Positions 1,991 to 17,908 of a DNA stretch of 18,829 nt are shown piece by piece. Made by a program: the position numbers and the translations under genes. Under the pieces are notes generated by a model. It did no database searches, was not told where the DNA came from, and saw only the letters and a program-made list of their open reading frames with translations. Source of the stretch: Chthoniobacteraceae bacterium (GTDB lineage Bacteria; Verrucomicrobiota; Verrucomicrobiia; Chthoniobacterales; Chthoniobacteraceae); the NCBI GenBank assembly GCA_031409655.1, contig JANNXQ010000005.1, positions 1 to 18,829 on the forward strand. Reading direction: 5' to 3'. Positions within the stretch are counted from its first letter, which is position 1. Every line of letters begins with the position of its first letter.

Positions 1991-2017
1991 GCGGCGGCTT
2001 TTGGTAGAACAACACCC

Positions 2018-2104
2018 TCAGTCCCGCGGCGATTGACCGCTCACAGCGTCGGATTCGATCAGCGTGCCGTCCATCGCCACGGCGGCGGCGTGGATGTGTT
2101 TCAT
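2018..2104 (-). pseudogene. Probable N-terminal remnant of a HAD-superfamily hydrolase (28 aa)
   Basis: MKHIHAAAVAMDGTLIESD resembles HAD motif I (hhhDxDGTLxDS) with the first Asp replaced by Ala. Stops after 28 aa. Last position in the minus-strand operon, behind an A/C-rich leader. Confidence 0.45.
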
Positions 2105-2126
2105 GGCGGGTTGATTCTTGGGGAAG

Positions 2127-2471
2127 TTAGCGGAAAAGATTTCGGATTCTTCCGCCGAGTTTTTGCAGGCTGCGGTCGAGGTGGAGATCGTGGAAATGTT
2201 CGACGCCATCCCTGACCGTGCTGGTGCCGCTTTCGACTAGGCGATCCGCGTTTCGCCGGACGGGCGCTGCGATGCTGTGCAGCCGGTCCTGAATTTCTTC
2301 GAGCAGGCGGGTCGCGCGACTTTCGATCGGGCGCGGTTGCAGCGCGCGGATGAGAAGACCGGCGGCGAGACCGCAGCCGATCGCGAAGATCAGGGACTGC
2401 GTTGGGTTTTCGCGCGTGAAGCGATTGAGCTTCGACGCGCATTCGGTGGTGGCACTGGATGGTGTGTTCAT
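2127..2471 (-). CDS. Small membrane-anchored protein with DUF883/ElaB-like segment (114 aa)
   Basis: Start reassigned to the ATG at 2471, which overlaps the upstream stop (ATGA). FTRENPTQSLIFAIGCGLAAGLLIR resembles the ElaB/YqjD 'vRenP.a..ia.g.G.l.Gll' anchor. Confidence 0.75.
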   Translation of the reverse strand: MNTPSSATTECASKLNRFTRENPTQSLIFAIGCGLAAGLLIRALQPRPIESRATRLLEEIQDRLHSIAAPVRRNADRLVESGTSTVRDGVEHFHDLHLDRSLQKLGGRIRNLFR

Positions 2472-2743
2472 GGATTGGATGAGCGGTTGGTTTTTTCGGG
2501 GCAGAGTTCCCACGCTTTGAGCAGGCCGAGGAAGAGCAGCGCCGGTCGCACCAGCGTGAAGGCGATGGCGGCGAGCGCGCCAACGATCGCGCTGATGGGA
2601 AGTAGATTGATGAGAAATCCCGCGCCAAACGCGGACGCGACGGCCTTCGCGGGTTCGCGGCGTGCAAAGGCGTCGGCGTGGCGAAGCCACGAGCGATCAG
2701 CGGCGGGATGCGGGGTGATTTTTTCGGAGTCAGTCATATTCAT
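2468..2743 (-). CDS. Hypothetical membrane protein (91 aa), DUF883-like REP..A motif
   Basis: FARREPAKAVASAFGAGFLINLL plus a second hydrophobic stretch. Tight operon spacing with both neighbours. Confidence 0.75.
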   Translation of the reverse strand: MNMTDSEKITPHPAADRSWLRHADAFARREPAKAVASAFGAGFLINLLPISAIVGALAAIAFTLVRPALLFLGLLKAWELCPEKTNRSSNP

Positions 2744-2763
2744 TTTTCTGAAAGCGTCGGGAA

Positions 2764-3267
2764 CTAGCGGACGGCATCCTGGATGGCGTCACCCGCTTTT
2801 TGCGCAGCGTCCTCGATGGAATTGCCCACGCGCTTTGCGGCGTCTTCCACCTTGTCCGCGCCGGATCGCGCATCGACCGGGCCCGACGTGGTGAGCGGCG
2901 CTTTAGCCTGCGCCACGGTAAAGCGCGCCATTTCCGCCGCGCGATACGTCTGGAGATTTTTCAATTTCACCGCGGCCTCTTCCCGACTGTCGCCGGTCCG
3001 CTTCGCCACGAGTTCCTCGAGTTCGGCAATTTCGCCTTCAAGTTCCGCGAGCGCCTTTTTCACGGTCGCGTGATTGGCCGCGGTCGGCTCGCGATCATAC
3101 AAATCGACTACCGAGCCGAGCCGCGAAGTTTCCAGCGTCCGCGTCTTTGCCACGGGCTCTGCGAGCGGCGCGGGCGGTTCGATTTGCACCACCACGGTTT
3201 TGCGCTCGCAACCCGCGGCGGCAAATGTGGCGGCAACAGCGATCAGGGCGAATGTGCGTGGAGTCAT
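2764..3267 (-). CDS. Lipoprotein with coiled-coil middle and LEA-like C-terminus (167 aa)
   Basis: The ATG at 3267 gives signal peptide MTPRTFALIAVAATFAAAG-C (lipobox). Paralog at 17560-17811 supports this start. C-terminal DAAKRVGNSIEDAAQKAGDAIQDAVR. Confidence 0.85.
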   Translation of the reverse strand: MTPRTFALIAVAATFAAAGCERKTVVVQIEPPAPLAEPVAKTRTLETSRLGSVVDLYDREPTAANHATVKKALAELEGEIAELEELVAKRTGDSREEAAVKLKNLQTYRAAEMARFTVAQAKAPLTTSGPVDARSGADKVEDAAKRVGNSIEDAAQKAGDAIQDAVR

Positions 3268-3276
3268 GCCAGTCCC

Positions 3277-3303
3277 ATCGCGAGCGACCCTGTCGGCGGC
3301 TGC
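3277..3303 (-). promoter_or_regulatory. Putative alternative-sigma promoter GCAGCC-N16-GCGAT
   Basis: On the minus strand GCAGCC (3303-3298), 16-nt spacer, GCGAT (3281-3277), then 9 nt to the ATG at 3267. Same boxes and spacing as the site at 4746-4772. Confidence 0.6.
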
Positions 3304-3345
3304 ATGTTTTTTTTGAAAATGCCGCGTCACATTTCCGCATTTGCC

Positions 3346-3372
3346 ACGACCGAATCCGGCGCGGGACGCGAT
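3346..3372 (+). promoter_or_regulatory. Putative alternative-sigma promoter ACGACC-N16-GCGAT
   Basis: ACGACC 3346-3351, 16-nt spacer, GCGAT 3368-3372, then 8 nt to the ATG at 3381. Confidence 0.55.
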
Positions 3373-3380
3373 AAGAGGGC

Positions 3381-3770
3381 ATGAACACGTTACACACCTT
3401 CACTTTCGATGGCTCCTGGCACCAAATCAAAGGCCAGCTCCGGCAGAAATTTGCGCTCCTCACCGACGACGATCTCGAATTCCTGGAAGGCAAAGGCGAA
3501 GAATTGCTCGGTCGTTTGCAGACCAAACTCGGCCTCACGAAAGACGCGCTAATCGCCCTGCTCAACCAATTGAAGGAAGCCGGAACGGAGTTCGCCGGGG
3601 ATGTGAAAGCGACCGTCGCGGGAGCCGCCGAAGAGGCCTACGCACAGACGCGCCAGCGCGTTCGCACGCTGCGCGAAGAGGCGGAGGATTACGTGAGCCA
3701 GCAGCCGCGCAAAGCCCTGCTGACGGCCCTCGCCGCGGGGTTTGTCGCCGGCCTTCTCATGCGGCGGTAG
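3381..3770 (+). CDS. CsbD-family stress protein fused to a DUF883/ElaB-like membrane anchor (129 aa)
   Basis: N-terminal GSWHQIKGQLRQKFALLTDDDLEFLEGKGEELLGRLQTKLG is CsbD/YjbJ-like. C-terminal EDYVSQQPRKALLTALAAGFVAGLLMRR is ElaB/YqjD-like. Confidence 0.9.
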   Translation: MNTLHTFTFDGSWHQIKGQLRQKFALLTDDDLEFLEGKGEELLGRLQTKLGLTKDALIALLNQLKEAGTEFAGDVKATVAGAAEEAYAQTRQRVRTLREEAEDYVSQQPRKALLTALAAGFVAGLLMRR

Positions 3771-3840
3771 TTGATGATTGTCCGACCATTGGAACGATGG
3801 CGAAATCGACCATCGCGCCAATCGAGGCGCGAGAACCTTG

Positions 3841-4281
3841 TTACTTCCGGCGCCCGCATTCGATCTCCGGCGCGTCGGTGTCGCTCCCACCCTGCGCGAG
3901 ATGCTCGCGGGCGAGTTCGGCGAGGTGTTCGTAGTCCTTGCGAATCGATCCCAACTCTTCCTCCGATAGCTCTTCGAGATTGAGCAGCGCAACGTGCGCG
4001 CCCTGGGTCGCGCGGATCAATTCGTCGAGCTTGATCTGAATGGCCTGAGTGTCGCGGTTCTGGCTGTTTTGGATGAGGAAAACCATCAGGAAGGTGATGA
4101 TCGTGGTGCTCGTGTTGATGATGAGCTGCCAGGTGTCGCTGAACCCGAAAACCGGCCCGGTGATGAGCCACAGGACGATCATCCCAAACGCGATGGCGAA
4201 CGCGATCGGTCGTCCAGTCATGATCGCGCACCACTGCGCGAGCCGCTTGAAGGTGGAGGCTGGGCTGGGCTTCGCGACCAT
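3841..4281 (-). CDS. Low-affinity iron permease family protein (Fet4-like)
   Basis: Family signature GPVFGFSDTWQLIINTSTTIITFLMVFLIQNSQNRDTQAIQIKLDELIRA. Start overlaps the upstream stop (TAATG). Confidence 0.93.
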   Translation of the reverse strand: MVAKPSPASTFKRLAQWCAIMTGRPIAFAIAFGMIVLWLITGPVFGFSDTWQLIINTSTTIITFLMVFLIQNSQNRDTQAIQIKLDELIRATQGAHVALLNLEELSEEELGSIRKDYEHLAELAREHLAQGGSDTDAPEIECGRRK

Positions 4282-4736
4282 TATCCCTCAATCGTCGGGT
4301 TATCGATGCCCAAAGCCCCCGCCAAATCGGTCAGGTGCTCCTGCTCTTGGGCGATGATTTTTCGCAACACTTCGCTCAACCCAAACTCGCCCATCGCCTC
4401 CGCCTGCCGAATCCTTTCGCGGTAATGGAGGATGGTCACTCGTTCGTTTTCGAGATCGTAGCGCAACATGTCCTCCGCCTTGTCGGACATTTTCACTTCC
4501 TTCGGCATCGTCGCGGGAGTGCCGTTGAAGTAATCGACCTGCTTGGCGATCTGCATGGCGTGGCTGAGTTCCTCGGTGGCGTGGACCGCCAGCTCCCGCG
4601 CGATGTCCGAAAATGCCGCGCCTTTAATCGTCTGACTGTAAACTGTGTACGCAATAATGGCTTGGTATTCGCGTGCAAGATCCTCGTTGAGGAGTTCGAT
4701 CATTCGTTCGCGGGTAATCTTTAATTCCTGGTTCAT
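4281..4736 (-). CDS. Ferritin-like (bacterioferritin-related) di-iron protein
   Basis: Four-helix di-iron pattern: LNEDLAREYQAIIAY, EELSH, DLENE...Y, EQEH. Confidence 0.92.
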   Translation of the reverse strand: MNQELKITRERMIELLNEDLAREYQAIIAYTVYSQTIKGAAFSDIARELAVHATEELSHAMQIAKQVDYFNGTPATMPKEVKMSDKAEDMLRYDLENERVTILHYRERIRQAEAMGEFGLSEVLRKIIAQEQEHLTDLAGALGIDNPTIEG

Positions 4737-4745
4737 GCTGTTGGA

Positions 4746-4772
4746 ATCGCAGCGCGCTCAAGCGGTGGCTGC
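4746..4772 (-). promoter_or_regulatory. Putative alternative-sigma promoter GCAGCC-N16-GCGAT
   Basis: On the minus strand GCAGCC (4772-4767), 16-nt spacer, GCGAT (4750-4746), then 9 nt to the ATG at 4736. Confidence 0.6.
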
Positions 4773-4803
4773 GTTTCATTCGTTGGAACGTCGGAAATAA
4801 GAT

Positions 4804-4830
4804 GCGACCGGCGCGCGCCCAGGATGCGAT
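4804..4830 (+). promoter_or_regulatory. Putative alternative-sigma promoter GCGACC-N16-GCGAT
   Basis: GCGACC 4804-4809, 16-nt spacer, GCGAT 4826-4830, then an A-rich leader to the ATG at 4850. Confidence 0.55.
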
Positions 4831-4849
4831 TCACTGGAAAACACAACCT

Positions 4850-5188
4850 ATGAAAACACTCATTGCATTCACCACCATCGGAGCCGCGCTGATAGGATTT
4901 ACCGCGTGCGATTCCAAAGTCGAATCCAGCCGCAAAGACGCGCTCGAAAGCAAAGCCGACGCGATGGAAAACAAGGCTGACACCGTCCGGAAGGACAGCA
5001 AGACCGACGCAGCCGACCTGAAGAAACAAGCCACATTGAACGCGGACGCCGATAAGGATGCCGCGAAGGCGCGCGCCGAAGTGGAGAAGAAAGCTGCCGA
5101 ACAGACCGCGGAGAGCGTTCGTAAATCGGGCGAGCAAGCCGCAAAGAATCTCGAAGAAAAGGCGAAAGACACTCGCGAGCAGAAATAG
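4850..5188 (+). CDS. Ala/Lys/Asp/Glu-rich LEA-like lipoprotein (112 aa)
   Basis: ATG at 4850 after leader aaaacacaacct. Signal peptide MKTLIAFTTIGAALIGFTA-C. The mature part is highly charged and helical with no aromatic residues. Confidence 0.85.
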   Translation: MKTLIAFTTIGAALIGFTACDSKVESSRKDALESKADAMENKADTVRKDSKTDAADLKKQATLNADADKDAAKARAEVEKKAAEQTAESVRKSGEQAAKNLEEKAKDTREQK

Positions 5189-5334
5189 CTCTCTGGTTCT
5201 CGCGCTCAGCATCTGCAGGCGGCGCGATGCGTCTGATGTGGCGTTCGTGACACAATTTGGCCCGCTTGCGCTGGCCAGTCTCGTGACTTACTGGCGGGAC
5301 GATTGCATAGGCGACAACGCACGCGGGTTCGGCG

Positions 5335-5562
5335 GTGCCGGAGGCACCATGGAATTTAGCCGGTGGTGAAGCGAGTCCGCGAGCGGGAACCACCGGATGG
5401 CGTCCACAAAAACGAAGGCGCCCCGGCAGGGGCGCTGGAACCACACGCGGGACCGGAAGGCCATCGCCCCTGCCGGGGCGGATTCCCTTTTCACATGGTT
5501 CCGGTGGTTCCCGCTCGCGGACTCGCTTCACCACCGGCTAATTTCCTCAGCGCCTCCGGCGC
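5335..5562. repeat. Nested palindromic intergenic element (REPIN/MITE-like)
   Basis: 47-bp inverted repeat 5351-5397 / 5500-5546 with 1 mismatch. Outer hairpins GTGCC-GGA-GGCAC (5335-5347) and GCGCC-TCC-GGCGC (5550-5562). Inner perfect 16-bp inverted repeat CGCCCCGGCAGGGGCG (5419-5434 / 5465-5480). Confidence 0.9.
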
Positions 5563-5694
5563 GGTCAGCAAGATGATCGCTCCTGTCGTCTATCCTCCAG
5601 CCTTCTCATTACGTGACTCTTTCCACGGCCTGCCTGACAGGACCGGAGTGGATTTGCGTAGTCATCGCAGCGGCTTCCACATCAACTACTGCTA

Positions 5695-7431
5695 ATGCCC
5701 GACTCCGGGAAAACCCACTTGGAACTGTTCAGGAAGTTCTTCGTTCTCGCCAAAGCCTTCTTCAATGGCGGGGCGAAGCGGCAGGCGCGGTTGTGGCTCG
5801 CGGCCTTGCTCGGGCTCTGCGTCGCGGTCGGGGTCGTCCAGGTTTTCCTCAGCTATGCGATGCGGGATTTCGTCACTGCACTCACCCAGCGCGATCACGC
5901 GGCCTGGGTGCGCGGGCTTTGGAAATATGTTGCCGTCTGCCTGGTCTCCGTCCCCGTCGGCGTCTTCTACCGCTTTTCCTCGGAGCGGCTCTCACTCGCC
6001 TGGCGGCGCTGGCTGACGCAGATCCTCATCAAGCGCTATTTTTTCAACCGCGCCTACTACCGCATCCGCGCTTCCGAGAGCGTGGACAACCCCGACCAGC
6101 GCATCGCCGAAGACGTGAAAGGCTTCACCACAAACGTGCTGAATTTCTTCCTCGTCATCGTCAACTCACTCGTGACGCTGGTCGGTTTCGTCGGTGTCCT
6201 ATGGGCCGTATCAGGTCGCCTTGTTGGCGTCCTTTTCATTTACGCCGTGGTCGGCACCGGCGTCTCGATGCTCTTCGGAAGACGGCTCGTGGGGCTCTAC
6301 TTCAACCAGTATCAAAAGGAAGCCACGTTCCGCTACGGTCTCGTCCGGGTGCGCGACAATGCGGAATCCATCGCCTTCTTTCGCGGAGAAAAACGGGAGC
6401 ATCGCGATCTGATCGAACGCCTCAACGAGGTGCTGGAGAACTCATTCTGGATCATCGGATGGACGCGAAACCTGGGCTTCTTCGCCAATGGCTACAACTA
6501 CCTTGCCCTCATCATTCCCGGCCTGATCGTCGGCCCCATGTTCATGCGCGGCGAGGTGGAGTTCGGCGTCGTCACCCAAGCCGAGGGAGCTTTCGCGGCG
6601 GTGCTCGGCGCTGTCTCCATCATCATTGCGCAGATCGAGGGTCTCAGCGCCTTTACCGCCGGCATCCGCCGACTCGCTGATCTTTTGGAAAACCTCGACG
6701 AGTTCGACGCCGAGGATGCCCGCGAGGCCGAGGAAGCGAAGAGCGAAGTCAATGAAGAGGCGCTCCAACTCAAGCTCGACGACGTGACCGTGCAAACGCC
6801 CAGCGGCGACAAAACCCTCACCCAGCACCTCAGCCTCCAGCTTCCCCGGCGCGGCAGCCTGCTCGTCATGGGCGAGAGCGGCTCGGGAAAAAGCTCGCTG
6901 CTGCGCACGATCGCCGGCCTGTGGCACCCCGGCGGCGGCACCATCGATCGACCCGCGCACAACCGCCTCATCTTCCTCCCGCAAAAACCCTACATGGTCC
7001 CCGGCAATCTCCGCGCTCAGCTCATGTATCCGCTCGGCGAGGAGGACGCGAAAGACGACGCCATCCGCGCCGTGCTCGAAAACGTGAACCTTCACGACAT
7101 CTTCGCCCGCGTGGGTAACGACCTCGACAAGATCGTCGATTGGACCAACGTCCTTTCCCTCGGTGAACAACAGCGCGTCGCCTTCGCCCGGCTCTTCCTG
7201 AAAAAGCCCGCCATCGCCTTTCTCGACGAAGCCACGAGCGCGCTCGACGAGGAAAACGAACGCTTCCTCTACGAAAAACTGCGCGCCTCCGGCATCGCCT
7301 TCGTCAGCGTCGGCCACCGCTCCACGCTCAAGGAATTCCACGACCGGCTGCTCCTCCTCAAGAACGATGGCAGCAGCGAGATCGCGCCGCTAACCAAGCC
7401 CGGCGCGGAACCGGCCAGTCACCACTCCTGA
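5695..7431 (+). CDS. ABC transporter, fused permease/ATP-binding, ABCD (YddA/ExsE-like) family
   Basis: DNPDQRIAED; EAA-like EATFRYGLVRVRDNAESIAFFRGE; Walker A GESGSGKS; signature LSLGEQQR; Walker B FLDEATSALD; H-loop VGHR. Confidence 0.95.
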   Translation: MPDSGKTHLELFRKFFVLAKAFFNGGAKRQARLWLAALLGLCVAVGVVQVFLSYAMRDFVTALTQRDHAAWVRGLWKYVAVCLVSVPVGVFYRFSSERLSLAWRRWLTQILIKRYFFNRAYYRIRASESVDNPDQRIAEDVKGFTTNVLNFFLVIVNSLVTLVGFVGVLWAVSGRLVGVLFIYAVVGTGVSMLFGRRLVGLYFNQYQKEATFRYGLVRVRDNAESIAFFRGEKREHRDLIERLNEVLENSFWIIGWTRNLGFFANGYNYLALIIPGLIVGPMFMRGEVEFGVVTQAEGAFAAVLGAVSIIIAQIEGLSAFTAGIRRLADLLENLDEFDAEDAREAEEAKSEVNEEALQLKLDDVTVQTPSGDKTLTQHLSLQLPRRGSLLVMGESGSGKSSLLRTIAGLWHPGGGTIDRPAHNRLIFLPQKPYMVPGNLRAQLMYPLGEEDAKDDAIRAVLENVNLHDIFARVGNDLDKIVDWTNVLSLGEQQRVAFARLFLKKPAIAFLDEATSALDEENERFLYEKLRASGIAFVSVGHRSTLKEFHDRLLLLKNDGSSEIAPLTKPGAEPASHHS

Positions 7432-7447
7432 TCCGATTCAGCACGCG

Positions 7448-9226
7448 ATGACTTTTCAAATCGCCCTCATGCTCGCCGCGTTGCTCGCCGCCGTCGTGCT
7501 CTTCTCCCTCGAGTGGTTCACCGCGGATACCATCGCGCTCGGGCTGCTGGTGATGCTTGTGCTCACGGGGCTGCTGCCGGTCGAGCGCGCGTTCGATGGC
7601 TTCGGCAGCGATACGGTCATCGTCATCCTCGCGTTGCTCATCCTCACGGCGGCGCTCACGCGCACAGGGATGATCGACATCGTCGGGCGCGCGATCCTCC
7701 GGCGCACGGGCGACAATCCCGAACGGTTGCTCGCCGTGGTCATGGTCGGCTCGGCGACCATCGGCGCTTTCATGAGCAATACAGCGGCGACGGCGTTCTT
7801 CGTGCCGATCGTCATCGGGATCGCGCAGCGCGCTGGCTTTTCCGCGTCGAAGCTGCTGCTGCCGCTGGCCTTCGCGGGCATCCTGAGCAGCTCGGTTTCG
7901 CTGATCAGCACTTCGTCGAATCTCGTGATCAGCGGGCTGATGACGCAGAAGGGCCTCGCGCCAATGGGCATGTTCGAACTCGCGCCGGTTGGCATCCCGA
8001 TCACCGTCGCCGGCCTGCTCTACATGTATTTCATCGGGCGAAAACTCACGCCGGATCGCGGCGGCGGCGCAGGCTTGATCGAGCAGTTCGGCGTCGCGCC
8101 GTTTCTCACCGAGGCGTTGATCCCGCCTGACTCTCCGCTCGTCGGGAAAACGCTCGGCGAGACGAAATTCGGCAGCGACCTCGACCTCACCGTGCTCGAA
8201 ATCATCCGCGACAAGGATCGCCATTTCGCGCCGCGCACCACGATGAAACTGGCCGCGGGCGACGTGCTCCTCGTCGAAGGCCGGCCGGATGAAATCCTCA
8301 AGATCAAGGGAACCGACGGCGTGGAGATCAAAGCCGACGTGAAGCTGGCGGACCCCGATCTTCAGGACGACGAGATGGGCCTCGTCGAGGCGATCCTCAT
8401 GCCAGGCTCGCCGCTCATTGGGCGGACGTTGAAGGGCGCGCGCTTCCGTGAGCGCTACGGCCTGCAGGTGATCGGCATGAACCGCCGCGGGACCAATCTG
8501 CGCACCAAGTTGAGCACCGTGTCGCTACGGATGGGCGATGTCCTGCTCGTACAGGGGCCGCGCGTGCATGTCGCCGCGCTCAACGACGACCACACCTTCC
8601 GCGTCCTCGGCTCGCTCGAGGAAAAGCTCCCGCGGGGCCGGCGCGCGATAATCGCCGGCGCGATCTTCGCCGCCGCGATCCTGCTCGGCACTTTCAAGAT
8701 CGTGCCGCTCTCGATCGCGTTCCTCGCGGGCTGCGTGCTCGTCTTCGCGACGCGCTGCATCACGCCGGAGGAAGCGTATCGCGAAGTCGAGTGGCGCGTG
8801 CTCATCCTCATCGCCAGCATGCTCGGCTTCGGCGTCGCAATGGAGCACACCGGCACCGCGAACTACCTCGCCGGCCTGCTGCTCCGCCTGGCCGGCGACT
8901 CCAATCCGCTCTGGCTGCTCACCGGCTTCTTCTTCCTCACCGTCGCGCTCACGCAGCCCATGTCGAACCAGGCCGCCGCCGCCGTGATCCTGCCCATCGC
9001 GATCCAGACCGCCCAGAGCGCCGGCCTGAATCCGCGCACCTTTGCCATGATGGTCGCCGTCGCCGCGAGCACCTCCTACCTCACGCCGCTGGAGCCCTCC
9101 TGCATGATGGTCTTCGGCCCCGGCCGCTATCGTTTCGCAGATTTTGTGAAAGTCGGCGCGCTCCTGACGGTCATCGTCTTCGCCCTGGCCATCCTGCTCG
9201 TCCCGCGCTTCTGGCCACTGCGGTAA
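7448..9226 (+). CDS. SLC13/DASS-family permease with two TrkA-C domains (YfbS-like)
   Basis: Hydrophobic N- and C-terminal halves with motifs FMSNTAA, ISTSSNL, PMSNQAAA, YLTPLE...GPGRYRFADF. Central TrkA-C repeats DSPLVGKTL and GSPLIGRTL. Confidence 0.94.
   Translation: MTFQIALMLAALLAAVVLFSLEWFTADTIALGLLVMLVLTGLLPVERAFDGFGSDTVIVILALLILTAALTRTGMIDIVGRAILRRTGDNPERLLAVVMVGSATIGAFMSNTAATAFFVPIVIGIAQRAGFSASKLLLPLAFAGILSSSVSLISTSSNLVISGLMTQKGLAPMGMFELAPVGIPITVAGLLYMYFIGRKLTPDRGGGAGLIEQFGVAPFLTEALIPPDSPLVGKTLGETKFGSDLDLTVLEIIRDKDRHFAPRTTMKLAAGDVLLVEGRPDEILKIKGTDGVEIKADVKLADPDLQDDEMGLVEAILMPGSPLIGRTLKGARFRERYGLQVIGMNRRGTNLRTKLSTVSLRMGDVLLVQGPRVHVAALNDDHTFRVLGSLEEKLPRGRRAIIAGAIFAAAILLGTFKIVPLSIAFLAGCVLVFATRCITPEEAYREVEWRVLILIASMLGFGVAMEHTGTANYLAGLLLRLAGDSNPLWLLTGFFFLTVALTQPMSNQAAAAVILPIAIQTAQSAGLNPRTFAMMVAVAASTSYLTPLEPSCMMVFGPGRYRFADFVKVGALLTVIVFALAILLVPRFWPLR
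8906..9226 (+). repeat. Direct repeat copy 1 (3' end of the SLC13 permease gene)
   Basis: Aligns without gaps to 13682-14002; 15 differences in 321 nt by manual count. Confidence 0.97.
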
Positions 9227-9291
9227 GTTTTCGGCACAGGCCCAGGAGACGGAAAAGCGCGAACCCCGGCGCAGCTGCGAACTTTCTGTCT

Positions 9292-9411
9292 ATGAAAAGC
9301 GCAAACTCTGACCATTCCACGAGCGGGAAAATCGGCTGGGCCTTACTTTGGCTCATCGGCGTGCCGGTGCCCGTGTTGCTCGTATTCTTCCTCCTGCGCG
9401 GCTGCACATAG
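9292..9411 (+). CDS. 39-aa single-TM micro-protein, copy 1 (MKSANSDHSTSGKIGWALLWLIGVPVPVLLVFFLLRGCT)
   Basis: Near-identical second copy at 16012-16131 with the same length, start and stop positions and only conservative or synonymous changes. Confidence 0.82.
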   Translation: MKSANSDHSTSGKIGWALLWLIGVPVPVLLVFFLLRGCT

Positions 9412-9912
9412 ACGATGAAGGGCGAAGCGCGTGACGCGCAACGGCTCCTGCCATTCGCGATTGGAGCTTGTGTGATAATTAACGACCCTTCCTCTCGCTT
9501 TCGAGACCATCGGAAAAACCGACGATCAATAGGTGAACGGTGCGCTGGGCGGGCGCGTAACGGAGCCGTTACCGCTAGTTATGTGTTTTGAAGATCGATG
9601 GAGGACGTTTTGTCGTGCCCTGTCAGACACAACCTTCACCGGGTATCGGTCGGAGCCCTAAATAAGTTCGGAGAGGGGGTTAAAGATGTGCCGGTATCAG
9701 CCCGGCCTGCATCTTTCAGGAATAGCGCGGCATTCGCCCCAGATGGCGGAACCCCGCCGCATCAAAAACAAAACAGAAAGCAAGCAAGGCCGGACCCCCG
9801 ACGGCACCCGATGTAATTCTGCCAGGCACAGCACAACAAACCAGAAAACGAAAAGCAGACCATGAATCCTTAAGCCCGTGCCCTCTCGCCCGCGCCTAAC
9901 CCCGCAGTTCCT

Positions 9913-12561
9913 ATGAAAACTCCTAAACGCCGTTCCTCGCCGAACTTCATTCTTCGGCTTTGCCAAACTTGGACGCTGCTAGCGGGCGCTTTCCTCATCG
10001 TCGGCGCGGCGGAAGTCCGCGCCGCCAGTGCGCTTTCCTTCGATGGCGCAAACGACTACGTCACCTTCGGCTCGGCGCCGGGACTGGGCACCGGAACGTT
10101 CACGGTTGAGACGTGGTTCAAGCGCACAGGAACCGGCATGGCCGCGAGCACTGGCACGGGAGGAGTGAGCGCGATCCCGCTGGTGGCCAAGGGCAGGGCG
10201 GAAGCCGATGGGACCACCCAGGACATGAATTATTTCCTCGGCATCCGCGCGGCGGACAACGTGCTGTGCGCGGATTTTGAGGAGGGTGCGGGCGGCGTCA
10301 GTCCGGGGCTGAATCATCCGGTTGCGGGCGTGACGCCGATTGCGAACAATGTGTGGTATCACGCCGCGGCTACTTACGACGGGACGAAGTGGCAGCTCTT
10401 TCTCAATGGCGCGCTCGAGGCCGAATTGGTGGTCGGCCGGCCGCCCCGCGCGGACAGCATCCAGCACGCGGCGCTCGGCTCCGCGCTCAATTCCACCGGC
10501 GTGGCGGCGGGCTATTTGGCCGGCGTGCTCGATGAAATCCGGATTTGGAATTACGCGCGCACGGCTGCGGACATTGCGGCGAACAAGAACGCGGAGATTC
10601 TCAATGCCACGGGCTTGCTCGGGCGCTGGGGCTTGAACGAAGGCAGCGGCACGGTCGCGGGCGACAGCGCGGGAAGTGTGATCAACGGCACGCTCCTGAA
10701 TGGTCCGCTCTGGGTCGCCGGATTCCAGCAGGCAGGCACGCCGGTCGTCACGCGTGGGCCGTATTTGCAGACCGGCACGCCGGCGAGCGTGATCGTGCGC
10801 TGGCGCACCGATCTCGCGACCGACAGCCGGGTTCGCTTCGGCACCAGCGCTGCGAACTTGAATCTCACCGCCGACAACGGCACCGCGGCCACCGAGCACC
10901 AAGTGCAGCTCACCGGGCTCACCGCGGACACGCAATACTTCTACTCGATTGGCTCGACCACCGCGACGCTGGCGGCTGGCGCGGACTTCTCACTCTTCAC
11001 CGCGCCTCCCGTCGGCACCGCGCAGCCGACGCGCATCTGGGTGCTCGGCGATTCGGGCACGGCGGATGCCAACGCGGCGGCGGTGCGCAACGGCTACACC
11101 AGCTTCGCCGCGGGCCGCTACACTGACGTCTGGCTGATGCTCGGCGACAATGCTTACAACAGCGGCACCGACGCGGAATTTCAGTCCGCGGTTTTTAACA
11201 TGTATCCGACGTATCTGCGGCAATCGGTGCTCTGGTCGGCGATCGGAAATCATGAGACGGCGCAATCGACCAATCCGCCGCTGACGATTCCGTATTTCCA
11301 AATCTTCAACTTCCCGACGAACGGCGAGGCCGGCGGCATGCCATCGGGCACGGAGAAGTATTATTCTTTCGATTACGGGCGGATTCACTTCATCGCGCTG
11401 GACTCGATGACTTCGAGCCGCCAGCCGGGAAGCCCGATGCTCACTTGGCTGCAGGCCGATCTCGAATCGACCGCGCAGGACTGGCTCATCGCGTTCTGGC
11501 ATCATCCGCCTTACACGAAAGGCTCGCATAATTCGGACACCGAGTCCGCTCTGATCGAGATGCGGCAGAACGCGCTGCCGATCCTTGAGGCGGGCGGCGT
11601 CGATCTCGTCCTCGCCGGCCACAGCCATTGCTACGAGCGCTCGTATTTGATCAACGGCCACTACGCACTCTCCACCACCTTCTCGAGCGCGAATGTGATC
11701 GACGGCGGCAGCGGTCGGGAGGGTGGCACCGGCGTTTACAGCAAGCCGGCAGGCTTGCCCGCGAATCAAGGTGCCGTCTATGCCGTGGCGGGAAATGGCG
11801 GCAAGCTCACGACGAGCTGGGTCGGTGGCAGCACGGCGGAGTTCAACCCGACGCCGCACCCCGCAATGTTCTATTCCGCCCGGCACCTCGGCTCGCTCGT
11901 GCTCGACGTGGATGGCAATCGGCTCGATGCAAAAATGATCCGCGAGACTGGCGCGCTGGATGATTACTTCACGATCGTCAAAAACGTGCCGAACACGCCG
12001 CCGAGCGTCAGCATCTCCAGCCCGGCCAATGGCGCGACTTTTCCCGCGCCCGCAACGATCACCGTCACCGCGAACGCCAGCGACACCGACGGCTTGGTCG
12101 CGCAGGTGGACTTTTACGCGGGCAACACTCTCCTCGGCACCGCAACGACCGCGCCTTTCAGCGTGACCTGGAGCAATGTGACCGCGGGCAGCTACCCGCT
12201 CACCGCAGCGGCGACGGATAATCTGGGGGCGACGACGGCTTCCGCCGCGGTGAACATCACGGTCAATCCGCCGCCGCCAGCGACTCCATCGGCGCCCACG
12301 AATCTGACGGCGGCAGCCATCTCGCCGACGCAGATCACTCTCACGTGGGCGGACAACTCTGGAAACGAGGATGGCTTCCAAATCGAGCGCGGGATCAGCG
12401 CGAACTCCTTTGCCCAGATCGCGGTCGTCGGTGAAAATGTGACGAGCTTTGCGAACACGGGCGTGGCCCCGAACAAGAAATACTACTACCGTGTTCGTGC
12501 GTATAACGCCGCCGGTGCCTCACCCTACTCGAATACCGCCAGCGCCAGGACGCCGAGGTGA
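9913..12561 (+). CDS. Secreted multidomain purple-acid-phosphatase-like metallophosphoesterase (LamG - FN3-like - MPP - Ig-like - FN3)
   Basis: Signal peptide; LamG motifs ALSFDGANDYV, WYHAAATYDG, GVLDEIRIWNYART; metallophosphoesterase motifs GDSG, GDNAY, GNHE, WHHPPY, GHSH; Ig-like NTPPSVSISSPANG...ATDNLG; C-terminal FN3 YYYRVRAYN. Confidence 0.93.
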   Translation: MKTPKRRSSPNFILRLCQTWTLLAGAFLIVGAAEVRAASALSFDGANDYVTFGSAPGLGTGTFTVETWFKRTGTGMAASTGTGGVSAIPLVAKGRAEADGTTQDMNYFLGIRAADNVLCADFEEGAGGVSPGLNHPVAGVTPIANNVWYHAAATYDGTKWQLFLNGALEAELVVGRPPRADSIQHAALGSALNSTGVAAGYLAGVLDEIRIWNYARTAADIAANKNAEILNATGLLGRWGLNEGSGTVAGDSAGSVINGTLLNGPLWVAGFQQAGTPVVTRGPYLQTGTPASVIVRWRTDLATDSRVRFGTSAANLNLTADNGTAATEHQVQLTGLTADTQYFYSIGSTTATLAAGADFSLFTAPPVGTAQPTRIWVLGDSGTADANAAAVRNGYTSFAAGRYTDVWLMLGDNAYNSGTDAEFQSAVFNMYPTYLRQSVLWSAIGNHETAQSTNPPLTIPYFQIFNFPTNGEAGGMPSGTEKYYSFDYGRIHFIALDSMTSSRQPGSPMLTWLQADLESTAQDWLIAFWHHPPYTKGSHNSDTESALIEMRQNALPILEAGGVDLVLAGHSHCYERSYLINGHYALSTTFSSANVIDGGSGREGGTGVYSKPAGLPANQGAVYAVAGNGGKLTTSWVGGSTAEFNPTPHPAMFYSARHLGSLVLDVDGNRLDAKMIRETGALDDYFTIVKNVPNTPPSVSISSPANGATFPAPATITVTANASDTDGLVAQVDFYAGNTLLGTATTAPFSVTWSNVTAGSYPLTAAATDNLGATTASAAVNITVNPPPPATPSAPTNLTAAAISPTQITLTWADNSGNEDGFQIERGISANSFAQIAVVGENVTSFANTGVAPNKKYYYRVRAYNAAGASPYSNTASARTPR

Positions 12562-13454
12562 TGACTGCGCTGCGCGAACGGCGGACGACGCCCGCCGACT
12601 GGTCTGCGGGCTGCGTGGCGTTTGGCATGTGGGTGGTGCTGACGGCCTCAGCGTTCGCGCACGGCGACCTTCACGAACAGATCGCAAACGTGACCGAGCA
12701 GGTTCAGAAAAGTCCCGAGAGTGCGGAGCTGGTTCTCAAACGGGCCGAACTCCACCGCGTCCACGCAGACTGGCCGGCTGCGGCGGCCGACTACGACCGC
12801 GCCGCGCAGCTCGCGCCCGGTCTGCTTGTGGTTCATCTCGGACGCGGCAGGATGCTCCTCTCGCAAGGCCGCTTCGAAGAGGCGAAAGCGGAACTGGATC
12901 AATTTGTCGCCGGGAATCCCGGGCATGTTGACGGCTTTGTCACGCGCGCCCGCATCGAGGTGAAACGCGGGAAACCACTCGCCGGCGCTGAAGATTTCGC
13001 GCGCGCCATTGCGCTCTCCGCGCGGCCTGAGCCCGAGGTTTACCTCGAGCGCGCACAGGCGCTCGTCGCAGCCGGCGGTGAGCATGTGGCCGAAGCTCTG
13101 CGCTGCCTCGATGACGGAACGGCAAAGCTCGGAAACTTGCCGACGCTCGGCCTCTACGCCATCGAGCTGGAGGTGAAGCGCGAGGAGTTCGACTCCGCCC
13201 TCTCACGTCTCGAACGCCTGAGCGCCGTCTCACCCCGCAAGGAAGCCTGGTTCGAGCGCCGCGGCGACATTTTGTTGCTCGCTAACCGCCTGGACCCGGC
13301 GCAGCAGGCATATCGCCAGGCGCTCGCCGCGATGGCGGCTCTGCCCTCGCGTGCCCGCGAAACCAAGGCGACGGCGGAGCTTCAAGAACGTCTCATCGGA
13401 AAGCTGGCTAACATGGCCACCGCCGCGCACGCTGAAAAACCGGCCGCTCCATAA
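12558..13454 (+). CDS. Exported tetratricopeptide-repeat protein
   Basis: Signal peptide ending ASAFA-HGDLHEQI. Repeated TPR-like helices (AAADYDRAAQLAP, AEDFARAIALS, AQQAYRQAL). Start (GTG 12558 or ATG 12561) overlaps the phosphatase stop. Confidence 0.88.
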   Translation: MMTALRERRTTPADWSAGCVAFGMWVVLTASAFAHGDLHEQIANVTEQVQKSPESAELVLKRAELHRVHADWPAAAADYDRAAQLAPGLLVVHLGRGRMLLSQGRFEEAKAELDQFVAGNPGHVDGFVTRARIEVKRGKPLAGAEDFARAIALSARPEPEVYLERAQALVAAGGEHVAEALRCLDDGTAKLGNLPTLGLYAIELEVKREEFDSALSRLERLSAVSPRKEAWFERRGDILLLANRLDPAQQAYRQALAAMAALPSRARETKATAELQERLIGKLANMATAAHAEKPAAP

Positions 13455-13492
13455 GTATCGAACCGCTGCAAGCTCGATAGACCGCACGGGGG

Positions 13493-14002
13493 GTGGCCCG
13501 TGCTCGGATCGGTGCGGCGCAGGCATCGAGCTTCCGGCCCGCCACGCGGCACGCGCACGGCACGTTCGAGACGCTCGACCTCACGCCTTTCAAATCGCTC
13601 CTCGCGTCCGGCCGCAACGTCCTCGCCATCGAACTCCACCTCGCCAGCACCACCGACACCGACGCCTACTTCGACGCCGACCCGCTCTGGCTGCTCGCCG
13701 GCTTCTTCTTTCTCACCGTCGCGCTCACGCAGCCCATGTCGAACCAGGCCGCCGCCGCCGTCATCCTACCCATCGCGATCCAGACCGCGCAAAGCGCCGG
13801 CCTGAACCCGCGCACCTTTGCGATGATGGTCGCCGTCGCCGCGAGCACCTCCTACCTCACGCCGCTGGAGCCCTCCTGCATGATGGTCTTCGGTCCCGGG
13901 CGCTATCGGTTCGCGGATTTTGTGAAAGTCGGCGCGCTCCTGACGGTGATCGTCTTCGCCCTGGCCATCCTGCTCGTCCCGCACTTCTGGCCACTGCGGT
14001 GA
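13493..14002 (+). pseudogene. Chimeric remnant: beta-sandwich domain fragment fused in frame to a duplicate permease 3' end
   Basis: About 13540-13681 encodes FETLDLTPFKSLLASGRNVLAIELH...DAYFDA, the tail of a jelly-roll-like domain. 13682-14002 encodes the last 106 aa of the permease. No convincing start. Confidence 0.8.
13682..14002 (+). repeat. Direct repeat copy 2 (displaced permease 3' end)
   Basis: Offset 4776 nt from copy 1; about 95% identical. Confidence 0.97.
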
Positions 14003-14003
14003 G

Positions 14004-14030
14004 GCATCCGCGCGCATGACCCGATGCGAA
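14004..14030 (+). promoter_or_regulatory. Putative alternative-sigma promoter GCATCC-N16-GCGAA
   Basis: GCATCC 14004-14009, 16-nt spacer, GCGAA 14026-14030, upstream of the ATG at 14054. Confidence 0.5.
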
Positions 14031-14053
14031 ATCATTCCGAATACGAAGCCACC

Positions 14054-15868
14054 ATGACTGCACAGACCATCTCTTCACCTCCGGCGACCGCGGCCCCCGG
14101 CATGGGAGCCATCCCGCTTGAAAAAGGCGTGGCTTTTCGCGTGTGGGCTCCGCACGCGGAGGGTGTGGCAGTCCTCGGCACGTTCAATGATTTCGATGCC
14201 ACCCGGCATCCGCTGTCCTCGGAGGGCAACGGCTATTGGTCTGCGGAGGTCGAGTCGGCCAAGGCAGGCGACGAATATAAGTTCGAGATCAGGAACGGAG
14301 AGCAGCGGCTCTCCCGCATCGATCCCTACGCCCGGCAGGTGACCAACTCCGTGGGCAACGGCGTCATCTACCACGATGACTTTGCCTGGGAGGATGACGA
14401 TTTCCGCATGCCATCGTGGAATGAAATCGTGATCTACGAACTGCACATCGGCACCTTTGCGCGCAGCGCAGATGGCCGGCCGGGAACCTTCGACGACGCC
14501 ATCAAGCGGCTCCGCTATCTGCAGGCGCTTGGGATCAATGCCGTGGAAGTGATGCCCATCGCGGAATTCGCGGGCGACTTATCCTGGGGCTACAACCCCG
14601 CGCACATTTTTTCGGTCGAAACGGCTTACGGCGGGCCCGATGGGTTCAAGCGTTTCGTCAAAGCGGCCCACGCCCTGGGCATCGCGGTCATTCTCGATGT
14701 CGTCTATAACCACTTCGGCCCGTCCGATCTCGATCTCTGGCGTTTTGACGGCTGGAGCGAGAACGACAAAGGCGGCATCTATTTCTACAACGACTGGCGC
14801 TCCGCTACGCCGTGGGGCGACACGCGGCCCGACTATGGCCGCGGCGAAGTCCGCCGCTTCATCCACGACAACGCGATGATGTGGCTCGGCGAGTTTCGCG
14901 CCGATGGCCTGCGCTACGACATGGCGCTCTACATTCGCAGCGTCTCGGGAAACGCCGGCGACGACCTGCACGAGGGCTGGACGCTGATGCAGTGGATCAA
15001 TCGCGACGTGGCGGAGCGCTTTCCGGGAAAGATCACGATCGCGGAGGATTTGCGAAACAACGAGGCGCTCACCGCCCATGAGAACCAGGGCGGCGCAAAT
15101 TTCTCGACGCAGTGGGATCCCGGATTCGTGCATCCGATCCGCGCGGCGGTGATCTCGGCGGATGACGCCCATCGCGACATGTGCGCGGTGCGCGACGCAC
15201 TGCTGCACAGCTTCGGCGGCGATGCCTTCAAGCGCGTGGTCTATACCGAGTCGCACGATGAAGTCGCCAATGGCAAAGCCCGCGTGACCTCGGAAATCAA
15301 CGTCAACGATCCCGAAGGCTGGTATGCCCTGAAACGCTCCACGCTCGGCGCCGGTCTCGTGCTCACCGCACCGGGCATCCCGATGCTCTTCCAAGGCCAG
15401 GCCATGCTGGAAGACGGCTGGTTTCAAGACACCGACGCGATCGACTGGAGCAACGTCCGCAAGTTCTCCGGCGTGACGCGCCTCTATCGCGACCTCATCC
15501 GCCTGCGGCTGAACTCGGACGGCATTTCCCGCGGACTCACGGGTCAGCACGTCAATGTCCATCACGTCAACGACCACGACAAAGTGATCGCGTTTCTGCG
15601 GCACAAGGACGGCGGGCCGAACGACCACACGCTCGTCGTCGCCAACTTCTCCGCGCGAGGTCTGGAACCCTACGAAGTCGGCGTGCCCGTGGCCGGTCGC
15701 TGGGTCGCGCGTTTCAACAGCGACTGGGAAGGCTACCGCGAAGACCTCGGGAATTTCCCCGTGCAGGACGTGGTGGCCACCGCCATCGAACGCGACGGCC
15801 AACCGGCGACCGCTGCCGTTTCGGTGGCCGCCTATTCGCTGAGCATTTACGTCCTGGCTGGTGATTAG
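14054..15868 (+). CDS. GH13 alpha-amylase-family enzyme with CBM48 (glycogen branching enzyme / TreZ-like)
   Basis: FRVWAPHA (CBM48), IYELHIGTF, SWGYNP, DVVYNH, DGLRYD (nucleophile), IAED (acid/base), ESHDE. The ATG at 14054 is preferred because the ATG at 14024 lies inside the promoter motif. Confidence 0.93.
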   Translation: MTAQTISSPPATAAPGMGAIPLEKGVAFRVWAPHAEGVAVLGTFNDFDATRHPLSSEGNGYWSAEVESAKAGDEYKFEIRNGEQRLSRIDPYARQVTNSVGNGVIYHDDFAWEDDDFRMPSWNEIVIYELHIGTFARSADGRPGTFDDAIKRLRYLQALGINAVEVMPIAEFAGDLSWGYNPAHIFSVETAYGGPDGFKRFVKAAHALGIAVILDVVYNHFGPSDLDLWRFDGWSENDKGGIYFYNDWRSATPWGDTRPDYGRGEVRRFIHDNAMMWLGEFRADGLRYDMALYIRSVSGNAGDDLHEGWTLMQWINRDVAERFPGKITIAEDLRNNEALTAHENQGGANFSTQWDPGFVHPIRAAVISADDAHRDMCAVRDALLHSFGGDAFKRVVYTESHDEVANGKARVTSEINVNDPEGWYALKRSTLGAGLVLTAPGIPMLFQGQAMLEDGWFQDTDAIDWSNVRKFSGVTRLYRDLIRLRLNSDGISRGLTGQHVNVHHVNDHDKVIAFLRHKDGGPNDHTLVVANFSARGLEPYEVGVPVAGRWVARFNSDWEGYREDLGNFPVQDVVATAIERDGQPATAAVSVAAYSLSIYVLAGD

Positions 15869-15902
15869 AGCGGTTGCCGAAAGCTGCTTCCGGCAGTGCA
15901 AG

Positions 15903-15925
15903 GTAGCGCAAGCCTCCGGCCTGCG
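15903..15925 (+). repeat. Single GTAG-type REP-like hairpin
   Basis: GTAG followed by CGCAAGCC-TCC-GGCCTGCG (8-bp stem, one mismatch) in an intergenic region. Confidence 0.5.
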
Positions 15926-16011
15926 AGCCGGGAAAGACCCAAGCCGCCCGATCGTGTGAGTCCGTCAAATAGACAAGCGCAAACCCCGGAGGTGCTGCGA
16001 ACTAGCTATGT

Positions 16012-16131
16012 ATGAAAACCGCAAATTCTGACCATTCCACCAGCGGGAAAATCGGCTGGGCACTGCTCTGGCTCGTCGGCGTGCCGGTGCCCGTGCTGCT
16101 CATCCTTTTCCTCCTGCGCGGCTGCACTTGA
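16012..16131 (+). CDS. 39-aa single-TM micro-protein, copy 2 (MKTANSDHSTSGKIGWALLWLVGVPVPVLLILFLLRGCT)
   Basis: Paralog of 9292-9411, 35/39 aa identical; about 35 nt of upstream sequence is also similar. Confidence 0.82.
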   Translation: MKTANSDHSTSGKIGWALLWLVGVPVPVLLILFLLRGCT

Positions 16132-16137
16132 TCGCTC

Positions 16138-16290
16138 TCCGGCTACGGCTGCGCGCGCACTTACGCCGAAGTCCTCGGCGACAAGGCAGGCGCGAAGGTG
16201 CTCCAGCAGACGCTCGATGAAGAAGCCGCGACCGACAAAAAACTCACCAAGCTCGCTAAATCCACCATCAACCTCGCCGCCGTGAAATAA
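16138..16290 (+). pseudogene. C-terminal remnant of a YciE/YciF (DUF892) ferritin-like stress protein
   Basis: SGYGCARTYAEVLGDKAGAKVLQQTLDEEAATDKKLTKLAKSTINLAAVK* matches the DUF892 C-terminal pattern YG...A..LG....L..TL.EE..TD.KLT.LA...IN. No ATG and no N-terminal two-thirds. Stop lies 3 nt before the BON gene. Confidence 0.85.
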
Positions 16291-16293
16291 TCT

Positions 16294-16689: not shown

Positions 16690-16716
16690 CAACCAGCAAC
16701 CTAGAAAAACATCACC

Positions 16717-17241: not shown

Positions 17242-17269
17242 GGCTTTCGTCTTTTCCCTGAAGTTCCTA

Positions 17270-17301
17270 AAAACCCCGCGCACTTCGGTGCGCGGGGTTT
17301 T
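17270..17301 (+). terminator. Rho-independent terminator, possibly bidirectional
   Basis: AAAA-CCCCGCGCAC-TTCG-GTGCGCGGGG-TTTT: perfect 10-bp stem, c(UUCG)g loop and T tail, about 30 nt after the stop at 17241. Confidence 0.9.
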
Positions 17302-17395
17302 CTTCGTTGGGCAGCGAGACTGTTTTTCACAAATCCAAAATGCACACACGCGCGGAGCGATGCAGGCGCGATACTTGGTAGAACCACATAACATT

Positions 17396-17811: not shown

Positions 17812-17908
17812 CCATGCCTTGTTTTCTCTCCGCTGCCGCGGGTGGGTTTCCGTTGGTGACCTCCATTTTCATCCAGGATTGCGAACGCAGGAAGAAGCGC
17901 CCCCGCTG

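Follow-up and report, generated by a model that had tools for sequence, protein, structure and literature searches.

Several stress-type genes in an 18,829-nucleotide (nt) stretch of DNA from a Chthoniobacteraceae bacterium are preceded by the same pair of short boxes, and the question raised by this locus is whether the pair is a promoter and, if so, which sigma factor reads it. The stretch, called the window below, is the entire contig C5 of a 6.85-Mb bin (G000; contamination 5.26%). An initial annotation had described the motif as RCRNCC-N16-GCGA(T/A) and attributed it to an alternative sigma factor serving a general-stress regulon. Spacing, orientation, conservation, distances to the start codon and gene content support that attribution: the motif is almost certainly a real, order-wide promoter of the extracytoplasmic function (ECF) type, with the two boxes likely to act as the -35 and -10 elements of a general-stress-type regulon. 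We propose that it is read by an orphan clade of SigK-like ECF sigma factors, with a probability of roughly 0.72.

Two boxes in front of stress-type genes

A pattern scan finds the strict form at exactly five places in the window, in agreement with the initial annotation as to coordinates, strands and 16-nt spacing. When the window is shuffled, the mean is 1.42 matches and 3 of 200 shuffles reach five, a result that is modest by itself because the pattern was derived from those same sites. Sites are scored here with a matrix built from 52 sites of other genomes only (G000 and G001 are excluded); the pattern behind these 52 sites requires CG in the -10 box, which is hence invariant by construction. 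The candidate sites in the window are as follows:

3277..3303, minus strand: predicted promoter site GCAGCC-N16-GCGAT, 9 nt before the ATG of the 167-amino-acid (aa) open reading frame (ORF) 3267-2764; score 12.6
3346..3372, plus strand: predicted promoter site ACGACC-N16-GCGAT, 8 nt before csbD; score 12.9; both boxes kept in the paralogue on contig C85
4746..4772, minus strand: predicted promoter site GCAGCC-N16-GCGAT, 9 nt before the ferritin-like gene; score 17.0
4804..4830, plus strand: predicted promoter site GCGACC-N16-GCGAT, 19 nt before the 112-aa ORF 4850-5188; score 17.9, the best in the genome
7411..7437, plus strand: predicted promoter site CCGGCC-N16-CCGAT, 10 nt before the CitMHS/TrkA-C permease gene 7448-9226; score 16.2 (good)
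9255..9281, plus strand: variant site AAGCGC-N16-GCGAA, 10 nt before the gene of a 39-aa micro-protein, 9292-9411; score 11.5
9786..9812, plus strand: possible site AAGGCC-N16-CCGAT, upstream of the metallophosphoesterase gene 9913-12561; score 11.7, plausible and near background
14004..14030, plus strand: predicted promoter site GCATCC-N16-GCGAA, 23 nt before the GlgB/TreZ-like gene of glycoside hydrolase family 13 (GH13), 14054-15868; score 16.5
15975..16001, plus strand: variant site AAGCGC-N16-GCGAA, 10 nt before the second micro-protein gene, 16012-16131; score 12.0
17346..17372, plus strand: variant site ACACGC-N16-GCGAT, 23 nt before the DUF1328 gene 17396-17563; score 15.6
17859..17885, plus strand: weak site ACCTCC-N16-GCGAA, 23 nt before the cardiolipin-synthase-like gene (17909 onward); score 8.7

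Four weaker sites had been proposed beside the five strict ones. The one before the permease gene holds up well, the one before the phosphatase gene is plausible, and the one before the cardiolipin-synthase-like gene is weak; the fourth, at 9237-9263, scores 3.8 and is rejected in favor of the AAGCGC/GCGAA pair at 9255-9281. The sites at 15975-16001 and 17346-17372 had been overlooked. The first of these likely also drives a yciF remnant, a BON gene and a YflT-like gene, as an operon judged from gene spacing, and the -35 variant of the second is also present before DUF1328 in relatives. The 9255-9281 site is kept in the duplicate at 15975-16001 and, as ACGCGC/GCGAA, before a paralogue on contig C165. 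Positions 1215-3786 and 5690-7606 of the window are 85-88% paralogous to contig C85, which reflects either duplication or heterogeneity of the bin. On C85, the counterpart of the 3277..3303 site reads ACGACC/GCGAA with a diverged spacer, that of the 14004-14030 site reads GCATCC-N15-CCGAA, which is the spacing of SigK promoters, and the DNA paralogous to the 17859-17885 site keeps CC-N16-GCGAA.

In the whole genome (5491 genes from a self-trained gene caller), the strict pattern as such is not raised at N16, with 356 matches compared to 331-621 over spacers N10-23 (N16 and 13 others). Among noncoding matches within 40 nt of a called start, there are 16 at N16, 13 of them outside the window, versus 0-5 at each of the 13 other spacers, and the N16 matches peak 8-9 nt before the ATG. 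By matrix score, 27 genes reach at least 14 at N16 versus 3-9 at other spacers, and 63 reach at least 12 versus 12-28. The excess is confined to eight contigs, picked after seeing the matches, where 40 of 166 genes have a site at N16 versus 0-4 at other spacers; outside these contigs the count is 23 of 5124 genes versus 12-24.

The spacing is conserved in orthologous upstream regions as well. Upstream sequences of stress genes were fetched from a panel of 41 genomes (30 of 41 csbD matches, 30 of 38 DUF1328 matches and 30 of 44 matches to yciF, i.e. DUF892), and G000 is not counted among the relatives. A match to VCRNCC-N16-NCGAW no more than 100 nt from the start is found for 16 of 28 csbD, 16 of 29 yciF and 5 of 28 DUF1328 copies; other spacers give 0-4 matches in the same upstreams, and the reverse strand gives 0-1. 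The original strict form is found before 4 csbD, 7 yciF and 3 DUF1328 copies. Since the pattern was relaxed after viewing csbD, yciF serves as the held-out test: its 16 of 29 compare with a shuffle mean of 0.38 and a maximum of 3 over 200 shuffles. The DUF1328 copies have a -35 variant, ACGCGC or ACACGC, leading to the joint consensus VCRNSC-N16-NCGAW. One genome, G002, has both -35 variants and one sigma factor of the clade, which makes it likely that both are read by a single sigma. Outside the order, genomes without the clade have the motif at 0 of 11 yciF and 0 of 9 csbD upstreams. G160, from another order and with two clade members, has ACAACC-N16-ACGAA at 1 of 3 yciF and at 0 of 2 csbD genes.

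The predicted targets include four CsbD genes, the long catalase (KatE), YciF, three DUF1328 genes and DUF3309, together with GH13 trehalose/glycogen enzymes, pyridoxamine-oxidase-like stress proteins, DUF2383, DUF6799, DUF2934, an AI-2E transporter, iron permeases and a REC-SpoIIE phosphatase. Gene content of the CsbD, YciF and KatE type is typical of SigB, RpoS and EcfG regulons, and this set, with BON and trehalose-type genes, has the composition of a general-stress regulon. The promoter in turn has two boxes, a fixed spacing within 16-18 nt and CG at -13/-12, the position given for CG in ECF promoters in Table S1 of PMC7776599. The end of the site is 8-13 nt from the ATG at 23 of the 40 sites on the eight contigs (island sites) and 15-57 nt at the remainder. 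With CG at -13/-12, the sites 8-13 nt away would give leaderless or near-leaderless mRNAs, and it is likely that the regulon's mRNAs are largely leaderless.

Two explanations without a dedicated sigma factor can be weighed at this point. Chance or local duplication might be suspected because the whole-genome N16 count is at background and paralogous DNA exists; yet, apart from the duplicated micro-protein pair, the spacers of the window sites have only 3-8 of 16 bases in common, and the held-out conservation in other genera refutes this explanation, to which we attach practically no weight. The boxes could instead be the operator of a transcription factor that works with sigma-70. They are, though, neither palindromic nor directly repeated, they are strand-specific (reverse strand 0-1 of 28-29) and separated by a fixed 16-nt spacer, the island sites end as close to the ATG as just described, and positions 1900-18000 of the window contain no sigma-70-like promoter where 2.6 are expected; an operator is accordingly very unlikely.

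A candidate sigma factor related to SigK

G000 has 42 matches to sigma-70 region 2. Two of them are the members of the orphan clade:

G000 contig C58, 11693-12349: clade sigma copy 1, on a motif-rich stress contig
G000 contig C276, 33358-33990: clade sigma copy 2, on a motif-rich stress contig

Both copies neighbor DUF1328, DUF3309, GlgX-like, catalase and yciF genes, and their contigs are among those with the set of about 40 sites. The nearest solved relative of the candidate is SigK (4nqw, E-value 2e-21). The top NCBIfam models are PRK12519 and the SigK model PRK09646, at 127-142 bits versus cut-offs of 222-226; with 127 and 137 bits versus the PRK09646 cut-off of 226, the candidates fall outside the SigK subfamily. 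A quick tree of 66 homologues, in which G024C271, G018C302 and G022C38 are long branches, places 14 canonical SigK/RskA-type proteins (GTIKARIRRG) apart from 52 with GTIKTRLEL, with a support of 99 in the Shimodaira-Hasegawa-like approximate likelihood ratio test (SH-aLRT).

The distribution of the clade follows that of the stress genes. Among 40 relatives, csbD, DUF1328 or yciF is present in 26 of 28 clade-positive genomes, and none of the three is present in 11 of 12 clade-negative ones. The clade occurs in 24 relatives of the family and in four other families of the order, at loci often unlinked to stress genes; a survey of 150 genomes from all over the phylum, which scored 20 candidates in each and rechecked eight outside genomes in full, found it outside the order only in G160. 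The clade is large: among 8000 scored candidates, 2941 proteins match at E<=1e-50, some canonical relatives included, and the named organisms among the matches are Chthoniobacter, Chthoniobacteraceae and Candidatus Udaeobacter. The motif precedes 12 of 114 neighbors of the 12 closest sigmas and 0 of 138 genes around canonical SigK-like sigmas.

The consensus, which the initial annotation did not recognize, resembles the Mycobacterium tuberculosis SigK promoter, CCATCC-N15-CCGAAT in Supplementary Table 2 of PMC4821874. The CC and CGAW cores are common to both, while the spacer is one base longer and the -35 box looser, and so the consensus reads as a degenerate, one-base-longer relative of the SigK promoter. 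Exact CCATCC and GCATCC hexamers and an occasional N15 spacing are found among the sites; T at the ATC position of the -35 box occurs in 16 of 52 sites, and the spacer is N16 versus N15 for SigK. In Dataset S3 of PMC7776599, Lys171 and Asp84 (RpoE numbering) go with C at -31 (0.98) and CG at -13/-12 (0.62), and the clade sigma has both residues, in agreement with the -31 C and the CG of the motif. Arg175 is tied to T at -32 in PMC7776599; the clade has Glu at 175, and -32 of the motif is unconstrained (A12 T16 C14 G10 of 52).

Several observations weigh against the clade as the reader. Of 28 genomes with fetched stress genes, 7 are without a strict site although all seven have the sigma (G004, G018, G020, G021, G029, G030 and G037); near-matches are seen in several of them and none in G021 (0 of 6). 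Conversely, G014 has sites (3 of 4) and no clade member was found in it, the genome being 75% complete. Pattern counts blind to genes, which are noisy across the 41 genomes, are only weakly raised: 301 versus 230 in clade-positive and 57 versus 54 in clade-negative genomes. No enrichment is seen among the neighbors of the remaining 40 clade members (4 of 394). From Thr172, G would be expected at -34 (0.74), and the motif has C there when aligned in the register of SigK, although the residue-172 rule is also broken by SigK itself, which has Ser172. The counts are not independent, since the genomes are related to one another and part of the window has a copy on C85 (85-88%). Finally, distribution does not cleanly exclude an RpoE-like core sigma.

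Such a core Verrucomicrobia sigma, either the group-2 factor at C19 or an RpoE-like one at C32 or C147, might read the motif after a lineage-specific change, with the orphan clade merely traveling with the stress genes. A group-2 sigma is an RpoS-like candidate by analogy; the C19, C32 and C147 sigmas are, like the clade, common to G000, G020 and G023, and the seven clade-positive genomes without strict sites would fit. However, five of five sister-order genomes with motif-free yciF and csbD encode orthologues of the group-2 sigma (63-68%) and C147 (46-49%), C32-type matches there being ambiguous at 39-42%; the Ser172/Phe175 of RpoE-like sigmas points to a -35 of the GGAAC type, and the resemblance to the SigK consensus also counts against a core sigma, which leaves it improbable. 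We regard as slightly less probable again a canonical SigK/RskA-type sigma (C219 with RskA, or C66), acting alone or together with the orphan clade. It is of the same family, the GCATCC/CCATCC hexamers and occasional N15 spacing would suit it, and G014 combines sites with a C66 orthologue and no clade member; but three genomes that are 94-96% complete have sites (5 of 5 in G002, 3 of 3 in G010 and 1 of 2 in G013) and no canonical SigK-like match at E<=1e-35. C219, moreover, comes with a divergent pair of its own, TGCATCC-N17-CGCAT, the -10 differs at three further canonical loci (TGCATCY-N15/16-CGT), and sister-order genomes possess canonical SigK-like sigmas, yet no motif. Promoter and sigma may also be as proposed while the regulon serves a single condition, such as desiccation or stationary phase, as a local module carried on an island. 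All excess sites are on eight contigs, C58 has a TrwC relaxase and integrase beside tRNA-Gly, and the window is duplicated on C85; on the other hand, the clade extends through the family and four other families, often unlinked to stress genes, sites are kept at csbD and yciF, and the gene content matches SigB, RpoS and EcfG regulons. This option is unlikely too, if a little less so than the other two, and the orphan SigK-like clade as reader of a general-stress-type promoter remains our preferred reading.

Two further candidates were tried and rejected. FliA/sigma-28 was not found in G010, G020 and G023, of which G010 and G023 show the motif at 3 of 3 genes; for a divergent group-2-like sigma at C32:97161, five genomes were tested and gave no orthologue, only matches of 33-42%. 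Some related loci may be noted. The TGCATCC-N17-CGCAT pair of C219 flanks the canonical SigK-RskA/DUF4331 locus (L017, G000 C219:12820-13084) and likely represents its own promoters. A short ORF at G000 C213:44407-44658 has a sigma region-2-like domain alone (83-aa frame) and could be a fragment or a sigma mimic. The TrwC relaxase, integrase and tRNA-Gly border the sigma-bearing stress island on C58 (C58:22898-29332; L002, L302), an integrative element. In sister-order genomes without the clade, 6 of 20 yciF/csbD upstreams have GGAAC-N16/18-GT (L248, L252, L256, L262, L266 and L269, from G084, G136, G051, G063, G098 and G154), probably a second, EcfG/RpoE-like stress promoter in Verrucomicrobia; GGAAC-N16/18-GT[ACG]C is found at 0 of 90 stress-gene upstreams in Chthoniobacterales.

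Proposed control of the sigma and comparison with known systems

The motif is found upstream of 2 of 66 SigK-like sigma loci, neither of them a G000 copy, and a regular-expression search covering 700 nt upstream of each of the 42 sigma-70 factors turned up no convincing site for autoregulation. The initial annotation had proposed to look for a sigma gene with the same motif upstream; the likely sigma has none, and such a test of autoregulation would have failed. Neither G000 copy has an RskA-like anti-sigma with a transmembrane helix at +1. With no adjacent anti-sigma and no upstream motif, the switch would be transcriptional.

Sigma-54-type sites lie before 19 of 52 clade sigma genes, with 10 of the 12 closest among them, and before 0 of 14 canonical genes. 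One of the two G000 copies has such a site ahead of it. RpoN is present in G000, where the sigma-54 spacing is enriched genome-wide (45 versus 9-17). Activators with GAFTGA are encoded at eight clade loci, including a CHASE3 kinase-activator fusion adjoining the C276 copy. Against this kind of control, the sigma-54 site at C276 is degenerate and 33 of 52 clade loci have none. In the proposed cascade, NtrC-type activators encoded close to the sigma would receive phosphate from sensor kinases, transcription of the sigma gene would be driven by sigma-54 at the site TGGCACG-N4-AGGCA, and the ECF sigma would in turn initiate the largely leaderless mRNAs of CsbD, YciF, DUF1328, KatE, ferritin-like, BON, trehalose and glycogen genes under stress. 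Divergent from 8 of the 12 closest sigma genes is a conserved 220-aa histidine-kinase core without a sensor (H box RQHTHDVRN), which may relay phosphate to the neighboring activators:

L001:12526-13185, plus strand: sensorless histidine-kinase core
L003:8370-9047, minus strand: sensorless histidine-kinase core

The 45 G000 genes with a sigma-54-type site, many of them 11-16 nt before the ATG, include flagellar and pilus-like genes, and leaderless sigma-54 transcripts look common in this genome.

In 5 of 52 clade loci, which belong to five other genomes, the sigma gene is directly followed by that of a small protein resembling the RskA N-terminus, with no Pfam match:

L210:5712-5981, minus strand: RskA-N-terminus-like protein of 78-97 aa (also at L195, L201, L202 and L208)

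The corresponding hidden Markov model has the C219 RskA as its sole match in G000. When the G023 sigma is modeled with its 89-aa partner from their own alignments, the interface score ipSAE is 0.77 versus 0.00 for the best control, at least 95% of contacts agree between runs, and the predicted local distance difference test (pLDDT) value of the partner is at least 84; among solved pairs, 116 of 157 reach the ipSAE mark, as do 2 of 215 mismatched ones. The pass may reflect likeness to the solved SigK-RskA pair, and it bears on the clade, not on G000. The protein, predicted to bind its sigma, is likely a soluble mini anti-sigma.

The predicted regulon resembles those of SigB (Firmicutes, Actinobacteria) and RpoS in its CsbD, YciF, YflT-like, BON, trehalose/glycogen and KatE genes, and in the REC-SpoIIE phosphatase under the motif. 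SigB is a group 3 and RpoS a group 2 sigma, with other promoters, whereas the candidate is a group 4 sigma. EcfG (ECF15) of Alphaproteobacteria has a regulon of CsbD/YciF/KatE-type genes and is controlled by NepR/PhyR partner switching. The present system is similar in that an ECF sigma fed by sensor kinases would govern such a regulon; it differs in the -35 box (VCRNSC versus GGAAC), the ECF lineage and the sigma-54 cascade postulated here. The role of EcfG in the general stress response is covered in the supplement of PMC7826278.

Promoter cores, best solved-structure match and top NCBIfam models all link the candidate to M. tuberculosis SigK (ECF19). Unlike SigK, it has a motif with a spacer one base longer and a degenerate -35, scores below the cut-offs, no full-length RskA at +1 in G000, no sigma-4 cysteine pair and no autoregulation, and about 40 promoters here compare with the small sigK plus mpt70/mpt83 regulon described in PMC4105308. 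PMC7826278, as far as consulted, lists ECF18/ECF19 promoters as TGCATCTT/CGTA and ATC/CG, the LitS promoter as GCATG/CGGAAG and the ECF22 promoter as TGTGATTTT/GCGAAT. The ECF18/19 -35 is related to our motif and ECF22 shares the GCGAA -10, but none of these four has VCRNSC-N16-NCGAW in the entries consulted, and the -35 and DUF2207 anti-sigma of ECF22 do not fit. For ECF19, the same portion describes neither a stress-gene context nor sigma-54 control. The readable supplements of PMC7776599 contain no Verrucomicrobia names. The literature searched yielded no general-stress sigma or promoter of Chthoniobacterales, although the large ECF promoter compilations (PMC7776599 Datasets S1/S2 and the PMC7826278 logos) could already list the motif.

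Taken as a whole, the system would work like the EcfG and SigB regulons and resembles SigK in promoter and protein, while failing SigK membership on score, anti-sigma and autoregulation. There is perhaps an even chance that Chthoniobacterales, including Candidatus Udaeobacter, have a fourth kind of master stress sigma beside RpoS, SigB and EcfG: a SigK-derived ECF factor that has shed its membrane anti-sigma and loosened its -35 to cover dozens of largely leaderless promoters, with one branch under sigma-54 and enhancer-binding proteins and another with a soluble mini anti-sigma. These lineages are abundant, mostly uncultured soil bacteria. The consensus could be used to predict stress regulons and small leaderless genes from metagenome bins and to read the stress state from metatranscriptomes. 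The system would also offer a testable case of a local ECF becoming a global regulator, by replacement of Arg175 with Glu and disappearance of the -32 T, by losing its anti-sigma and by coming under sigma-54.

Genes of the window and minor observations

The other genes of the window are listed below; those given above with the plus-strand sites are on the plus strand as well.

3381..3770, plus strand: CsbD-domain gene, 129 aa (PF05532, E-value 1.4e-14)
2764..3267, minus strand: predicted lipoprotein of 167 aa with no Pfam family, opening a three-gene leftward unit; paralogue on C85
2737-2468 and 2471-2127, minus strand: second and third genes of the leftward unit
4736-4281, minus strand: ferritin-like gene (PF00210)
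4281-3841, minus strand: low-affinity iron permease gene (PF04120)
16132-16290, plus strand: yciF remnant, C-terminal 52 aa only (Pfam)
16294-16689, plus strand: BON gene (Pfam)
16717-17241, plus strand: YflT-like gene (Pfam)

The permease and DUF1328 genes are likewise assigned by Pfam, and the GH13 gene by Pfam and NCBIfam. Among the gene labels of the initial annotation, CsbD, BON and DUF1328 agree with Pfam; its yciF proves to be the 52-aa remnant, and its ElaB-like genes at 2127-2737 have no Pfam match.

The 39-aa micro-protein and its promoter are duplicated within the window (9252-9411 and 15972-16290, 86%). C165 has the third copy, and G033 and G037 have homologues; within the window, the second copy abuts the yciF remnant. 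On C85, the copy of the permease gene has lost its start codon. Positions 13672-14003 are a 94.6% copy of the permease 3' end (8896-9227), placed ahead of the GH13 gene, and the 169-aa ORF 13493-14002 is probably a rearrangement scar. An imperfect 224-nt inverted repeat with internal hairpins at 5337-5560, also present on contig C126, is likely an element similar to repetitive extragenic palindromes or miniature inverted-repeat transposable elements (REP/MITE-like).

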